From IMG/VR virus record IMGVR_UViG_2675903468_000003, positions 1-40,979 of that record: 40,979 nucleotides of DNA; one strand, written 5' to 3'. The translations under genes were made by a program, and so were the position numbers. This stretch comes from a virus. Taxonomy: Duplodnaviria > Heunggongvirae > Uroviricota > Caudoviricetes. This document shows positions 1-40,979 of the stretch, piece after piece (the first letter of the stretch is position 1; the number at the start of each line of letters is the position of its first letter). Below the pieces are notes generated by a model. The model had not been told where the DNA came from. It did not search any database and was given only the letters and a program-made list of their open reading frames with translations.

Positions 1-1158
1 ATGCTCACCGTTAAGCAGATTGAAGCAGCAAAGCCGAAAGAAAAACCATACCGCCTACTCGATGGTAATGGCCTGTACCTTTATGTCCCTGTGTCAGGGA
101 AAAAGGTATGGCAGCTTCGCTACAAGATTGACGGTAAGGAGAAAATCCTGACCGTAGGAAAATATCCGCTAATGACTTTGCAGGAGGCAAGAGATAAAGC
201 ATGGACCGCGAGGAAAGACATCTCGGTTGGCATCGATCCGGTAAAAGCGAAAAAGGCTTCGTCTAACAACAATTCCTTTAGTGCGATTTACAAGGAATGG
301 TACGAGCACAAGAAGCAAGTCTGGTCAGTAGGCTATGCAACTGAACTTGCAAAAATGTTTGATGACGACATTTTACCTATCATCGGCGGCCTTGAAATTC
401 AGGATATTGAGCCGATGCAACTTCTTGAAGTAATCCGCAGATTTGAAGATCGCGGTGCAATGGAGAGAGCCAACAAAGCCCGCAGAAGATGCGGCGAGGT
501 TTTCCGTTACGCTATTGTCACCGGCAGGGCTAAATATAACCCAGCACCTGACCTTGCTGACGCCATGAAGGGATACCGCAAGAAGAACTTCCCGTTTCTT
601 CCTGCAGACCAGATCCCGGCATTCAACAAAGCACTGGCAACATTTTCAGGAAGTATCGTATCGCTCATTGCAACCAAAGTTTTACGCTACACAGCCCTCA
701 GAACAAAAGAACTTCGTTCCATGCTATGGAAGAACGTCGATTTTGAAAACAGGATTATCACTATCGACGCCAGTGTGATGAAGGGACGCAAGATTCATGT
801 GGTCCCGATGTCAGACCAGGTGGTTGAACTTCTCACTACGCTAAGCTCAATCACCAAACCAGTCTCAGAGTTTGTTTTTGCCGGTCGCAACGATAAGAAG
901 AAGCCAATTTGCGAGAACGCTGTACTACTTGTGATCAAACAAATCGGCTATGAAGGTCTGGAAAGCGGTCACGGATTCAGGCATGAATTCAGCACGATTA
1001 TGAACGAGCACGAATGGCCTGCTGACGCTATTGAAGTGCAACTGGCACATGCCAACGGCGGATCTGTGCGTGGGATTTACAACCATGCTCAGTATCTCGA
1101 TAAGCGCAGAGAAATGATGCAGTGGTGGGCGGATTATCTCGATGAGAGGGTGGCATAG
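1..1158 (+). CDS. int: Tyrosine integrase, P4/IntS-like
   Basis: 385 aa. N-terminus MLTVKQIEAAKPKEKPYRLLDGNGLYLYV and C-terminal HGFRHEFSTIMNEHEW...QLAHANGGSVRGIYNHAQY are typical of P4-family integrases; recalled as close to E. coli IntS. Confidence 0.9.
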   Translation: MLTVKQIEAAKPKEKPYRLLDGNGLYLYVPVSGKKVWQLRYKIDGKEKILTVGKYPLMTLQEARDKAWTARKDISVGIDPVKAKKASSNNNSFSAIYKEWYEHKKQVWSVGYATELAKMFDDDILPIIGGLEIQDIEPMQLLEVIRRFEDRGAMERANKARRRCGEVFRYAIVTGRAKYNPAPDLADAMKGYRKKNFPFLPADQIPAFNKALATFSGSIVSLIATKVLRYTALRTKELRSMLWKNVDFENRIITIDASVMKGRKIHVVPMSDQVVELLTTLSSITKPVSEFVFAGRNDKKKPICENAVLLVIKQIGYEGLESGHGFRHEFSTIMNEHEWPADAIEVQLAHANGGSVRGIYNHAQYLDKRREMMQWWADYLDERVA

Positions 1159-23216: not shown

Positions 23217-23574
23217 GTCTTACCCCCAGAAGGGGATCTGTTCAAATTAGGAATTATGGATATGGTCGCTTGAACAAATCCGGGTTACGGTTGATTTGTA
23301 GCGGGTTTGTTCGTGACCGCATTCATGAGCAAATCAGGCGTGGATTGCGCCAACAATACATGCCGCTCATATCACGAAGCCCAGCCATTGATGCTGGGTT
23401 TTCTTTTTTAAAGCGCACTAGACAACCGTATCCACAGAGTGTCAGCAATGAGTTGGTTAGGTCTAGTTCTTGGTGGAAGTACGCTTTAAAAAATGGGCTG
23501 AGGGTTGTAGCCCAAAATACTGAGGGAATGGTAAGGATGAACAACGGTTTTGCTCTGGGTGGATTTGGCTGTGG

Positions 23575-23656
23575 TGGCCGACGCTGATCTCCGGCTTGTA
23601 TACAGGCACCTTGTTCTTCCGAAGCTCTCCTGCGCGCATCAGCCTGCGCATTCACC
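23575..23656 (-). repeat. About 80-bp conserved element, copy A (late-operon leader); partner copy at 32245-32325
   Basis: Roughly 85% identical to 32245-32325 in inverted genomic orientation, so both copies are in the same sense relative to local transcription. See findings. Confidence 0.5.
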
Positions 23657-23764
23657 ACACCGGAAAGAGCACTCAGTTGTACCGGCCAGTTGTGCCACTA
23701 AGAAATGCTTTCGCAGACCGTTAAGCTCTTTGCCAGTTCTTTAATGCTCTTACCTGTTGTGCAG

Positions 23765-28193: not shown

Positions 28194-29630
28194 TCAGAAT
28201 CCTCCCTTCTTCTTGGACTGCGGTTCCTCGCGTTCACGTCGGCGCATTTCAGCAGACTGTTGGTCTGTGTCATAAATAGCGCCATTTGCCTGAATGCAAT
28301 ACACCGTGCCGGTATTGCCATGACGATTGAGACGAAGGATTAGTTCAGTTTCACCAGGTGGAACACTGTCATCAAAAGCGCCTTCCCGATGGATCCCAAC
28401 CCAATAATCGCAATCCTGTTCAATCTGCCCTGTATCTCGTGAGTCACTTGGTAATGGGCGTTTATTGGTTCGGCTTTCCAGTGCGCGGTTAAGCTGCGTC
28501 AGAAGCACAACAACGCAATCAAGCTCTTTGGCAAGGTTCTTCAGTCCTTTGGTGATCTTGCCGTAAGCAAGGTCGTTGCGATCGGCCTTTTCAGCGGTCA
28601 TTAGTGTCAGGTAATCGACCAGAATCATGCCAACGCATCCTTTTTCTCGCTTGATTCGACGGCTTTCGCTGACGATTTGAGCCAGAGATAATCCCGGCGT
28701 GTCGTCGATGTAAAGCAGGTCGATTTCACTCAAGCGATTAGCTGTTTCGATCGCCCTGTTGAAGTCACCATCGTAATCACCCTGATAGCCGTCATCGGCG
28801 TCATTTGTCGCCGGAAGGTAAAAAATATTCGGGTTAACACCTGACTTCTGTCCTACCAGTTTTTCCAGTATCTGGTCACCTGGCATTTCAAGGCTGAACA
28901 TCAGAGCGGGCTTTTTCTCATGAACTGCGCAGTTGATTGCCATCTGGCTGTATAGCGTCGTTTTCCCCATCTTAGGGCGAGCGCCAATGACAAACAGAGA
29001 GCCTTTCACCAGACCTTTCGGTGACAGCATCCTGTCCAGCGATGGGATACCTGTGCTCATTCCTCGTTGTTCGCCTGACGGGTCAAATCGCTTCTCAAGG
29101 TCGCTAACCCAGTCTTCCATGACCTCGCCAAATGAGCGAAGGCCGCGACGAGATCCGGTTTTTGCATGGTCTGTCAGTTGCGTGAAAATCGCCTGAATAG
29201 CTTCGTACTTCTGCGTTGCAGTCATTCCGTTGCGGGAATAGAGCAATTCCGTCGCTTCAGTCATGCGGTTGATGGCGTAGCGTTCCATTGCGGTTTCGCG
29301 AACCTGCATTGCATAGGCAACGATGTTTGCGGCGCTTGGCGTGTTCTTTGCGATCTCAGCGATATAAGCAAAACCGCCAACAGACACCGTTAACGATTTG
29401 CGCTCCAGTTCATCGAAAAGCGTCAGGCCATCTACTGGCTTTTGCTCCCGGTGCATTCTGGTTATTTCTTCGAAAAGGATTTTGTGTGGTCGGCTGTAAA
29501 ATGAATCAGGCTTCAGCATCGCCAGAACTTTCTGGACGCGCTCACTGCTGTCATCATCCAGAAGCAATCCACCAATCACCGCCTGCTCTGCCTCGATGCT
29601 ATGGGGCGGCGCATAAAAATTATCGGTCAT
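28194..29630 (-). CDS. Replicative DNA helicase, DnaB family (P22 gene 12-like)
   Basis: N-terminal PPHSIEAEQAVIGGLLLDD plus Walker-type GARPKMGKT and helicase motifs. Start trimmed to MTDNFY. Confidence 0.9.
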   Translation of the reverse strand: MTDNFYAPPHSIEAEQAVIGGLLLDDDSSERVQKVLAMLKPDSFYSRPHKILFEEITRMHREQKPVDGLTLFDELERKSLTVSVGGFAYIAEIAKNTPSAANIVAYAMQVRETAMERYAINRMTEATELLYSRNGMTATQKYEAIQAIFTQLTDHAKTGSRRGLRSFGEVMEDWVSDLEKRFDPSGEQRGMSTGIPSLDRMLSPKGLVKGSLFVIGARPKMGKTTLYSQMAINCAVHEKKPALMFSLEMPGDQILEKLVGQKSGVNPNIFYLPATNDADDGYQGDYDGDFNRAIETANRLSEIDLLYIDDTPGLSLAQIVSESRRIKREKGCVGMILVDYLTLMTAEKADRNDLAYGKITKGLKNLAKELDCVVVLLTQLNRALESRTNKRPLPSDSRDTGQIEQDCDYWVGIHREGAFDDSVPPGETELILRLNRHGNTGTVYCIQANGAIYDTDQQSAEMRRREREEPQSKKKGGF

Positions 29631-29826
29631 CGTGTTCACCCTCACGAACTTTCAGGTAGGTATTATCGTTAAGCAGGAAATCAAATCCCTTTTTGTGCCA
29701 GACAGTTCCGCGTTGATGGTTTGGGCGCTCTTCGAACATCCATCGGCAATTTTCTCCTACGTAGCTCAAATAATTTCTCCAGTCCTGCATCGTGAACCCA
29801 TGCCCGTCAAGCTGGCGGGTTATCAC
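29620..29826 (-). CDS. Probable C-terminal part of the O-like initiator, in a shifted frame
   Basis: Track ORF with GTG start; my hand translation suggests the frame is open upstream to about 29958, where it would join the O-like N-terminal frame at an A5 run. Not independently verified. Confidence 0.35.
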   Translation of the reverse strand: MITRQLDGHGFTMQDWRNYLSYVGENCRWMFEERPNHQRGTVWHKKGFDFLLNDNTYLKVREGEHDDR

Positions 29827-29873
29827 TCCGGCTTTGCGCCAGAACGTTCGGATCTGGTTTTTACGCTTGTCAT

Positions 29874-30446
29874 TCAGTGCGCGGATTCTTGGCGCTTCAG
29901 GAAGGATTTCGTGGTAAGCATCGACAACATCCTGACAGCTAACGGAAGGTTTTTCTTGTCAGACTTTTTGTCTGCTGTGGCACTCTCTAATACGTCAGTA
30001 TTAGAGATATTATTTATATTATTGTTTATGGACAACCGTTGGACAACCGTTGGACAATCTCCGCTGAGAGCCGCGCCATTACTGGTGTTTGCGTTGGACA
30101 ACCGTTGGACAACCGTTGGACAATTTTTTGCCTGAAAATCGTCATATTTAACGATTGTAAACAGGCTAAATTTCTTCCCCATCGCGCAAATATTAAGCAT
30201 CCCTTTCGACTCAAAAGTCCGTAATAAGCTCCGAACTTTGTTGTCGGGAATGAATGTTTCTCTGACCAGCGACGGGCGTCCAGTTATCATCTGACCGCGA
30301 TCAACAGTTATCGGCCCGATATCCGTATTGACGACAGTAGATTCGTGATTAGCCTTGAGGATTAAGTGAAGCCAAAGATGTACTGCCTGAGAGTCCTTAT
30401 AGAGCCTGCTGTCCATAAACTGGCGGTGTATAGAGACATACCCCAT
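29874..30446 (-). CDS. Replication initiator O-like protein (N-terminal domain, iteron-containing region)
   Basis: AGGAGG RBS then ATG at MGYVSIHRQFM. Winged-helix-like N-domain. Coding sequence includes the tandem iterons, as in lambda O. Frame terminates soon after the AT-rich region. Confidence 0.65.
   Translation of the reverse strand: MGYVSIHRQFMDSRLYKDSQAVHLWLHLILKANHESTVVNTDIGPITVDRGQMITGRPSLVRETFIPDNKVRSLLRTFESKGMLNICAMGKKFSLFTIVKYDDFQAKNCPTVVQRLSNANTSNGAALSGDCPTVVQRLSINNNINNISNTDVLESATADKKSDKKNLPLAVRMLSMLTTKSFLKRQESAH
30035..30125. repeat. Replication origin iterons inside the O-like gene
   Basis: Six or more tandem copies of GTTGGACAACC in two clusters, followed by an AT-rich stretch at about 29960-30030. 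Lambda-like ori architecture. Confidence 0.65.
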
Positions 30447-30495
30447 ACTGGATGCCTCCTGATGTTGTACAGGGTTATGCCTGTAATCAGCTAAC

Positions 30496-30657
30496 TTAAC
30501 GACGCCCATGTTTCACTCCTGCTTTGGCTAGTCTGTAAACACCAACAAGGCGCTCTGCGAACGCCCTGTTATTTGCTGCGGCTACCACTAATCCCTCAGG
30601 TGAATCAGGGTGTCGAATCTCTTCTTTTTCCTGGTATTTCTTACGACGGTTTGTCAT
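30496..30657 (-). CDS. Small basic hypothetical protein (53 aa) between cII and the O-like gene
   Basis: Self-derived ORF MTNRRKKYQEKEEIRHPDSPEGL... with GGAG RBS 7 nt upstream. No counterpart recalled in lambda. Confidence 0.25.
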   Translation of the reverse strand: MTNRRKKYQEKEEIRHPDSPEGLVVAAANNRAFAERLVGVYRLAKAGVKHGRR

Positions 30658-31357: not shown

Positions 31358-32008
31358 ATGAAAACTCAATTGATGGGAGAGCGCATTCGCGCTCGGAGAA
31401 AAGAACTCAAGATCAGGCAGGCCGCACTTGGAAAGATGGTCGGCGTGTCTAATGTTGCCATATCTCAGTGGGAACGCTCTGAGACAGAGCCAAATGGAGA
31501 GAATCTTCTCGCCCTGGCTAATGCGTTGAAGTGTTCCCCTGACTATCTGATGAAAGGAGAGGAAAGTCTTTCAAACATTGCCTATCACAGTAGGCATGAT
31601 CCAAGAGGGTCATACCCTCTGATTAGCTGGGTGAGCGCAGGATGCTGGATGGAAGCTGTAGAACCATATCATAAGCGTGCAATAGATAACTGGTACGATA
31701 CAACCGTAGACTGTTCAGAAGATTCGTTTTGGTTGGACGTGAAGGGAGACTCAATGACGGCTCCGGCCGGTCTCAGTATCCCTGAAGGAATGATAATACT
31801 CGTCGATCCTGAAGTAGAGCCGCGTAACGGGAAACTGGTAGTTGCAAAGCTCGAAGGAGAAAACGAGGCAACTTTCAAGAAGTTAGTTATTGATGCAGGC
31901 AGGAAGTTTCTAAAACCACTTAACCCACAATATCCGATGATCGAGATCAACGGAAACTGCAAAATCATCGGCGTAGTTGTCGATGCAAAACTAGCAAACC
32001 TTCCATAA
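31358..32008 (+). CDS. c2: CI-type prophage repressor (P22 C2-like; HTH plus S24 autopeptidase domain)
   Basis: 216 aa, MKTQLMGERIRARRKELKIRQAALGKMVGVSNVAISQWERSETEPNGENL... with C-terminal GDSM and Lys motifs; matches P22 C2. Confidence 0.9.
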   Translation: MKTQLMGERIRARRKELKIRQAALGKMVGVSNVAISQWERSETEPNGENLLALANALKCSPDYLMKGEESLSNIAYHSRHDPRGSYPLISWVSAGCWMEAVEPYHKRAIDNWYDTTVDCSEDSFWLDVKGDSMTAPAGLSIPEGMIILVDPEVEPRNGKLVVAKLEGENEATFKKLVIDAGRKFLKPLNPQYPMIEINGNCKIIGVVVDAKLANLP

Positions 32009-32009
32009 G

Positions 32010-32037
32010 GGGGCATTCGCCCCTTTTTTTATTTCCT
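32010..32037 (+). terminator. Intrinsic terminator after the repressor gene
   Basis: GGGGCATTCGCCCC followed by TTTTTTTATTT. Confidence 0.55.
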
Positions 32038-32049
32038 TTAAAAATCAAA

Positions 32050-32128
32050 TCCAAACTTAAGTTACGAAAGAAAATTTAAGTTTTCTTCAAAAATACTCTT
32101 GACCATTAATTAAAGAGATCTTAAATTT
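32050..32128 (+). promoter_or_regulatory. OL operators and PL promoter
   Basis: TTAAG/CTTAA half-site palindromes (for example ttaaagagatcttaaatt) overlapping a candidate TTGACC -35, 17-nt spacer, TAAATT -10, directed toward the N-like gene. Confidence 0.5.
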
Positions 32129-32172
32129 AAGCCATCAGCAGGACGCTGGTAGCCAAACGGAACAGATTGGCA

Positions 32173-32214
32173 GGCTCTTTAACATTGATGGGATTGTCCC
32201 GCCGAAATGCGGGA
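32173..32214 (+). promoter_or_regulatory. nutL (boxA plus boxB hairpin)
   Basis: GGCTCTTTAACA then TCCCGCCGAAATGCGGGA; the same hairpin as at nutR. Confidence 0.5.
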
Positions 32215-32244
32215 ACCAAAGAGTAGTTGGCTTTGGGATTGGAT

Positions 32245-32325
32245 GAATGCGCAGGCTGATGCGCGCAGGAGAGCTTCGGGAGAACAAGGTGCCTGTAAAT
32301 AAGCCGGAGTTCAGCACCGGCCATC
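32245..32325 (+). repeat. About 80-bp conserved element, copy B (PL leader between nutL and N)
   Basis: Partner of 23575-23656; see findings. Confidence 0.5.
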
Positions 32326-32356
32326 CAATCGCCAAAGTCAATCATCGGAGGTCAAC

Positions 32357-39889: not shown

Positions 39890-40090
39890 ATGCAACACGA
39901 ACTACAACCTGATTCACTGGTTGATTTGAAATTCATCATGGCCGATACTGGCTTTGGTAAAACCTTCATCTATGACCGGATTAAGTCCGGAGACCTGCCT
40001 AAAGCCAAAGTTATCCACGGGCGAGCACGATGGTTATATCGTGACCATTGTGAATTCAAAAATAAGCTCTTAAGCCGCGCTAATGGGTAA
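39890..40090 (+). CDS. AlpA/Xis-type DNA-binding protein (candidate excisionase)
   Basis: 66 aa MQHELQPDSLVDLKFIMADTGFGKTFIYDRIKSGDLPKAKVIHGRARWLYRDHCEFKNKL; AlpA/Vis-family HTH pattern; last phage-like gene before the att motif. Confidence 0.7.
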   Translation: MQHELQPDSLVDLKFIMADTGFGKTFIYDRIKSGDLPKAKVIHGRARWLYRDHCEFKNKLLSRANG

Positions 40091-40619: not shown

Positions 40620-40979
40620 CTATATTGCTGAAGGTACAGGCGTTTCCATAACTATTTGCTCGCGTTTTTTACTCAAGAAGAAAATGCCAAATAGCAACAT
40701 CAGGCAGACAATACCCGAAATTGCGAAGAAAACTGTCTGGTAGCCTGCGTGGTCAAAGAGTATCCCAGTCGGCGTTGAAAGCAGCACAATCCCAAGCGAA
40801 CTGGCAATTTGAAAACCAATCAGAAAGATCGTCGACGACAGGCGCTTATCAAAGTTTGCCACGCTGTATTTGAAGACGGATATGACACAAAGTGGAACCT
40901 CAATGGCATGTAACAACTTCACTAATGAAATAATCCAGGGGTTAACGAACAGCGCGCAGGAAAGGATACGCAACGCCAT
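40620..40979 (-). CDS. LacY-family (oligosaccharide:H+ symporter) permease C-terminal region, probably host flank; possibly partial
   Basis: ...LSTPTGILFDHAGYQTVFFAISGIVCLMLLFGIFFLS resembles the LacY C-terminal TM region. ORF starts at the last base of the window, so the 5' end may lie outside it. Confidence 0.5.
   Translation of the reverse strand: MALRILSCALFVNPWIISLVKLLHAIEVPLCVISVFKYSVANFDKRLSSTIFLIGFQIASSLGIVLLSTPTGILFDHAGYQTVFFAISGIVCLMLLFGIFFLSKKREQIVMETPVPSAI

Follow-up and report, generated by a model that had tools for sequence, protein, structure and literature searches.

A replication initiator gene that encloses its own putative origin appears as two reading frames in the deposited sequence of a P22-like prophage, which raises the question of whether the gene is broken in the bacterium, is expressed through a change of frame, or has been split by an error in the sequence. 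The prophage was analysed as one stretch of 40,979 nucleotides (IMG/VR record IMGVR_UViG_2675903468_000003, positions 1 to 40,979), referred to here as the window, and the site concerned lies in its early-right operon, on the minus strand.

Organization of the early-right operon

The initiator reading frame follows cro and cII and stands directly before the helicase gene (Table 1), which is the operon position of the HK022/Sf6-type O genes, and, as in those genes, the iterons and an A+T-rich stretch lie within the coding region. The N-terminal frame, ORF1, encodes 186 native residues followed by a 25-residue out-of-frame tail. We take its start, 30509, from the annotation of the equivalent position in relatives; a preliminary description of this DNA placed the split and its position correctly but began the frame at 30446, which is an internal ATG (Met22). 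The stop that it had put at about 29874 is the TGA found by machine translation, and the iterons it had noted in this frame are real 11-bp repeats.

Table 1. Features of the early-right operon and the interrupted initiator gene (window coordinates).
Feature	Position	Strand	Remarks
cro	31277-31092	-	followed by cII homologue, 53-aa ORF, O-like ORF and DnaB-like helicase gene
Small 53-aa ORF	30496-30657	-	HK97 gp53 / Sf6 gp42 homologue; shares 14 nt with initiator start
ORF1, N-terminal part of O-like initiator	29874-30509	-	211 aa; TGA 29876-29874
Ori iteron cluster 1	30091-30123	-	three 11-bp units TTGTCCAACG(G/C)
Ori iteron cluster 2	30029-30057	-	2.6 units of the same 11-bp repeat TTGTCCAACG(G/C)
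A+T-rich stretch	29975-30024		GC 0.30; adjoins iterons
Lesion site	29950-29954		A5 on coding (minus) strand, T5 on plus; A6 in all relatives
Second frame, initiator C-terminal 110 residues	29620-29958	-	112 open codons
DnaB-like replicative helicase gene	28194-29630	-	478 aa, intact; PF00772 DnaB, PF03796 DnaB_C

The second frame had been proposed from a hand translation, with which the machine translation agrees. It is bounded by a TGA just before it (29961-29959) and a TAA at its end (29622-29620), and there is no start codon near its beginning, the first being a GTG at 29826. Its end overlaps the helicase gene by 11 nt (helicase ATG 29630-29628), and GAGG is located 8-9 nt upstream of the helicase ATG. 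The helicase has the same length as those of HK75, Sf6, and IME10. Scanning the window for Rfam families and tRNAs gave nothing relevant at the lesion site.

The repeat that forms the two iteron clusters inside ORF1 is the 11-bp sequence TTGTCCAACGG, and the stretch equivalent to cluster 2 carries the label of a putative rep_origin in the Sf6 record. By analogy with the lambda ori, the adjacent A+T-rich stretch is presumed to be the unwinding region. In lambda O the N-terminal part binds DNA and the C-terminal part brings in the helicase machinery, and the window gene shares the logic of lambda O and ori-lambda in that the initiator gene holds its own origin, with iterons and then an A+T-rich region. 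The window initiator is unlike lambda O in having no detectable match to Pfam Phage_rep_O and in having as its partner a phage-encoded DnaB-like helicase (P22 gp12 type) rather than lambda P, and its iterons, 11-bp units in two clusters, are unlike those of ori-lambda. Its close relatives are the O genes of HK022 (gp54), HK75, IME10, and Sf6 (gp43), all of PHROG 345, which have about 99% DNA identity to it, occupy the same site between cII and a small ORF and the DnaB-like helicase gene, and contain the same in-gene iterons. These genes have a run of six A residues where the window has five, and it is the A5 that gives two frames in the deposited sequence.

Relationship of the two reading frames

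ORF1 and the second frame share positions 29958 to 29874, where the sole homopolymer is the A5 of GACAAGAAAAACC, the run at which the frames had been suggested to meet. Profile comparisons place the two products end to end on the same family: in PHROG 345 (replication initiation O-like), ORF1 aligns to profile positions 1-197 (E=2e-31) and the second frame to positions 196-292 (E=3e-46). The second frame is, on this sequence evidence, not a chance open frame, and the two frames are pieces of one gene, in keeping with the earlier view of the second frame as a C-terminal continuation ending at the helicase start. The family name for the initiator comes from PHROGs only among the three collections searched (Pfam, NCBIfam, and PHROGs); searches of Pfam and NCBIfam with the two pieces and with the intact protein of HK75 yielded no significant family, and a PDB sequence search with the intact protein gave no match.

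A megablast search of phage records returned matches of about 99% identity to IME10, HK75, HK629, Sf6, and others, and in each of these 1001 bases of the window pair with 1002 bases of the record. In HK75, Sf6, and IME10 the gene is a single 891-nt CDS encoding 296 aa with which both window frames are collinear. The DNA alignment with these three has one gap only, inside the A-run (A6 in theirs, A5 in the window). When one A is added back, a 296-aa protein results that carries two substitutions when compared with the O protein of HK75, of Sf6, or of IME10; it contains no further stops, and its C-terminal part differs from the relatives by at most one residue. The uninterrupted frame of about 296 codons that characterizes HK022/Sf6-type O is absent from the deposited sequence, in which one A is missing, but we judge this interruption to be an artefact, for the reasons given below, and still assign the gene to HK022/Sf6-type O (PHROG 345).

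Distribution of the A5 form

To place the shorter run among relatives, indels were tallied keyed to the homopolymer, since BLAST gap placement differs between strands. The run is shorter in the window than in 124 of 124 fetched related loci, all of which have A6. With a 71-nt query centred on the A5, none of 397 places in 366 complete E. coli genomes and none of 72 phage records reached 99% identity, and in the best matches the 71 bases align to 72, corresponding to A6. An exact 36-mer containing the A5 was found nowhere in IMG/VR, GTDB (one genome per species), or JGI metagenome contigs, and the 37-mer with A6 matched at least 120 IMG/VR contigs. Altogether A5 occurs in none of more than 590 related copies, which identifies it as a lesion of a single-ORF gene, and the comparison indicates that a single ORF is the ancestral state of the initiator. 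The preliminary description had allowed for a two-ORF arrangement in intact relatives too; none of these copies has one by way of an A5.

The exact 211-aa product, in the cluster listing, is present on a single Logan contig (run SRR2070769), and the A5 allele was not found in any other genome or run. Many short C-terminal proteins in the cluster were considered as possible further splits and set aside: their sources label them 'partial', they are mostly on short contigs, and they look like contig-end fragments. Separately, a 40-aa query meant to reveal other carriers of the out-of-frame tail in a collection of 5.8 billion proteins returned no candidates, and the word index and 90% clustering of that collection apparently hinder detection.

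This distribution bears directly on the idea that the two frames are joined by recoding, with a ribosomal -1 shift on G AAA AAC, or slippage by RNA polymerase, setting the ratio of full-length to truncated initiator. The sequence at the junction has some features that would suit such an event: a -1 shift after AAG AAA restores exactly the wild-type peptide DKKKPS, lysine AAA codons are known to be shift-prone in E. coli (as in the A AAA AAG of dnaX), and, were the A5 real, some spontaneous shifting at a low level would be plausible. Like the dnaX -1 frameshift site, the window has a lysine-codon A-run at the frame junction, but it is not conserved, its heptamer is non-canonical, and it has no stimulators, so that it does not qualify as a site of that kind. 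Read in the zero frame, AAG AAA AAC gives G AAA AAC, which is not a canonical X XXY YYZ heptamer. The predicted fold of positions 29860-29975 (116 nt) has z = -0.94, with 34 of 200 shuffled sequences folding as well, and by eye there is no Shine-Dalgarno-like (GGAGG-like) element upstream. A run of five A residues is also known to be too short for efficient transcriptional slippage. Most telling is that the 124 fetched relatives and all database copies have the gene in one frame with A6 and that there is no conserved two-frame arrangement. The lack of such an arrangement in any relative effectively refutes recoding as judged from sequence comparison, and we regard it as having almost no chance of being correct.

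Source assembly and sequencing platform

Miscalling of homopolymer length is the characteristic error of pyrosequencing on the 454 platform. Over 13,437 nt the window shows 100% identity to contig JTFF01000001.1 of assembly GCA_001441345.1, and the helicase product is found on that contig only; the O interval of JTFF01000001.1 has no protein on record. The accession JTFF00000000 belongs to E. coli K71, which was isolated from a cow shed and falls in phylogroup B1 and ST58 (PMC4725725, Table 1). Roche 454 GS FLX Titanium sequencing and de novo assembly in Newbler 2.6 are the methods given for the strain, and the paper names no other platform; the assembly is thus from a homopolymer-error-prone platform only (PMC4556653). 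The change at the O run is a one-base homopolymer indel private to this assembly.

Private indels elsewhere in the K71 contig

We compared about 59 kb of the K71 contig, comprising the window and its flanks, with all available relatives, and scored as private any indel at which K71 differs from every relative. Four private indels were found. Each removes one base from a run of 6 or 7, and in the same 59 kb there is neither a private gain nor a private indel at a site other than a homopolymer. In addition to A6 to A5 in O (124/124 related loci), there is a T7 to T6 change just outside mlaA (6/6 relatives, the closest otherwise 1 SNP in 10 kb away), a T7 to T6 change in cscB, giving 192 + 253 aa versus a single gene of about 415 aa elsewhere (3/3 relatives), and an A7 to A6 change in emrY, giving 91 + 419 aa versus 512 aa (10/10 relatives, one of which is otherwise 1 SNP in 3.3 kb from K71). 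Three of the four break genes (O, cscB, and emrY), and both cscB and emrY are conserved host genes; similar private homopolymer losses are thus present outside the prophage gene at the mlaA-proximal site, in cscB, and in emrY. Within the window the O run is the sole private indel in the 32.7 kb covered by three or more relatives.

The combination of a 454-only platform with like private losses in neighbouring conserved host genes makes a sequencing error the likeliest explanation. We conclude that the split is very probably a homopolymer undercall in the 454/Newbler draft of K71, with the DNA of the strain unchanged, and infer that the fault at the A-run lies in the reads and not in the DNA. 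Sequencing or assembly error, inactivating mutation, and slippage had been offered in the preliminary description without ranking; the 454 draft and the nearby undercalls favour the first, and slippage fails on the A6 present in all relatives. If the split is an undercall, the initiator would be an ordinary HK022/Sf6-type lambdoid O of 296 aa, with an N-terminal part lying over the ori iterons, which it presumably binds, and a C-terminal part preceding the DnaB-like helicase gene, to which it is probably translationally coupled. The loss of one A from an A6 run in the deposited sequence would make this initiator look split, and in reality it would be intact in the prophage, with nothing unusual at the lesion site.

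The main competing explanation is a real and very recent 1-nt slippage deletion in the A6 run, possibly in a mutator background, which we consider unlikely but by a clear distance the more credible of the alternatives to an undercall. Homopolymers are known as sites where indels readily arise in nature and prophage genes frequently become inactive, and the second frame has no usable start near its beginning, such that the split would abolish the function of the gene. Real homopolymer frameshifts could also build up in a strain deficient in mismatch repair, and this counts against an artefact. Nonetheless, the sequencing platform and, within 59 kb, three further private undercalls, of which two lie in conserved host genes, make an artefact more economical, and no other genome or run was found to carry the allele, the exact 211-aa product being confined to one contig.

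A second assembly, evidently of the same strain

Three Logan contigs of run SRR2070769 together cover about 29 kb of the deposited contig and differ from it at five sites, none of them a substitution. The run is evidently of the same strain as K71, and we infer that it represents the same 454 reads and hence the same platform. Each of the five is an undercall of a homopolymer in the Logan contigs: T6 to T5 in the helicase gene, and T6 to T5, T5 to T4, A6 to A5, and A6 to A5 at the other sites. This homopolymer-only disagreement between the assemblies indicates that the reads are noisy or ambiguous at exactly such runs. The Newbler run is the longer one at each of the five discordant sites, and at the two sites checked the relatives agree with Newbler.

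At the O run the Newbler consensus and the independent k-mer Logan assembly both give A5. The A5 is thus probably the majority call in the reads, and this agreement of two different assemblers counts against an artefact and in favour of a real deletion. Both assemblies also give the private T6 near mlaA, and agreement between assemblers is therefore no proof of a call. The lesion is like known 454/Newbler undercalls in being a private one-base loss in a run of six or more, with the cscB and emrY splits nearby, and in the homopolymer-only disagreement with a second assembly, a likeness seen at the level of the assemblies.

State of the rest of the prophage

We examined whether other parts of the prophage are damaged. 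Lengths are normal relative to those in relatives for the integrase, tailspike, ejection proteins, tail needle, gp10, gp4, coat, scaffold, portal, and both terminase subunits, and for the lysis genes, antiterminator, nin genes, and helicase. The 112 codons downstream of the shift contain no further damage. A generally degraded or cryptic prophage was considered and rejected on the basis of the normal gene lengths, the lack of any other private indel in 32.7 kb, and the open downstream codons. The gene itself is pristine but for the one base, which speaks for an undercall, and the pattern as a whole fits either an artefact or a very recent event and not a long-dead gene; the absence of any other lesion in the prophage, and of secondary decay across the 112 codons, counts against a real deletion.

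Consequences of the alternative readings

If the deletion is real, then by analogy with lambda O the 211-aa product would keep the N-terminal origin-binding part and would lose the C-terminal part, which is presumed to bring in the helicase and which the second frame could not supply by itself, its first start being the GTG at 29826. Termination 244 nt before the helicase start would be expected to abolish any translational coupling. Such a prophage would be replication-defective in the manner of lambda O-minus: inducible and able to excise, but giving almost no burst unless a related phage supplies O. It would be an ordinary frameshifted prophage pseudogene, a familiar kind of lesion that does not bear on open questions.

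A more elaborate possibility also starts from a real A5 and proposes that the truncated initiator occupies the iterons of infecting phages that share its ori specificity and blocks their replication, as a form of dominant-negative exclusion, with rare -1 slippage on AAG AAA AAC perhaps giving enough full-length O for occasional induction. We consider this highly improbable. A homopolymer undercall remains the preferred reading, under which a description of the prophage as replication-defective from the deposited sequence would probably have been misled by 454 homopolymer errors, and counts of pseudogenes in K71 (O, cscB, and emrY) probably likewise.

A second record with a divided O gene is that of Escherichia phage ECP1 (NC_049926.1), in which the same gene is annotated as two CDS as a result of a single-base indel, an extra C. 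The record names E. coli MG1655 as the host, and ECP1 presumably replicates. The ECP1 split differs from that in the window in being located in the N-terminal part and in being an insertion (C to CC) rather than a deletion.

Split genes and homopolymer runs in K71 and related genomes

Two host genes in the flank to the right of the prophage are split in K71, cscB being called as two pieces of 192 and 253 aa and emrY as pieces of 91 and 419 aa, compared with 512 aa elsewhere. Each split results from loss of one base in a T7 or A7 run, and both losses are private to K71. The cscB and emrY splits are probably assembly errors, and pseudogene calls in the K71 genome should therefore be handled with care.

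The O gene is also interrupted in the RefSeq record of phage ECP1 (NC_049926.1; host given as E. coli MG1655), where it is annotated as two CDS, 79-333 and 326-907. This split is caused by an extra C (C to CC) that is not present in the window or in phages HK75 and Sf6, and it is likely to be a further case of an essential gene interrupted by a sequencing error. An intergenic T7 run lies a short way downstream of the cI-like repressor gene; of 14 relatives, 12 have T8 here and two have T7. The shorter form is not private to K71, and it could reflect either natural variation or another undercall.

Many public assemblies contain proteins of 35-158 aa that the source records label 'DNA replication protein, partial'. 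They match the C terminus of proteins in this O family and are mostly encoded on short contigs, a pattern suggesting that breaks within the O gene are frequent in short-read assemblies, plausibly at the ori iterons.

Coordinates of features in the window, in the ECP1 O region (L157) and in the right host flank of K71 (L159, a stretch of contig JTFF01000001.1)
Feature	Position	Strand	Context
Integrase gene	1-1158		begins at base 1
HNH endonuclease ORF (PF13392), 166 aa	17619-18119	+	head module
int-alpA RNA motif (RF02996), 44.2 bits	21226-21288	-	between lysis and packaging genes
~88-bp segment, one copy	23572-23657		between Q-like antiterminator and holin gene
ECP1 extra C	L157 about 315-320 (equivalent to window about 30208)		O gene
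cI-like repressor gene	31358-32008		
T7 run	32024-32030		downstream of repressor gene
~88-bp segment, other copy	32240-32327		between repressor and leftward early genes; overlaps 72-aa ORF (32127-32345)
torI-type excisionase gene	39890-40090		far end of window
cscB fragment	40620-40979		next to excisionase gene
cscB and emrY runs	L159:12975-12980 and L159:19447-19452		host flank right of window; private 1-base loss in each

Prophage ends and other features

Given the positions of the integrase and torI-type excisionase genes, the two occupy opposite ends of the prophage, an arrangement also seen in KplE1/CPS-53. The host flanks, with fadL, mlaA and yfdC to the left and csc, dsdA and emrKY to the right, both fit the KplE1/CPS-53 region.

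The HNH ORF, on the opposite strand, is flanked by the genes for the large terminase and the portal protein, and looks like a homing-endonuclease insertion in the P22-type head module. Several relatives also have this ORF, and some have additional ones following the scaffold gene or gp10.

The int-alpA motif is the window's sole match to Rfam that exceeds the gathering score. The two copies of the ~88-bp segment are 91% identical, inverted and ~8.6 kb apart.
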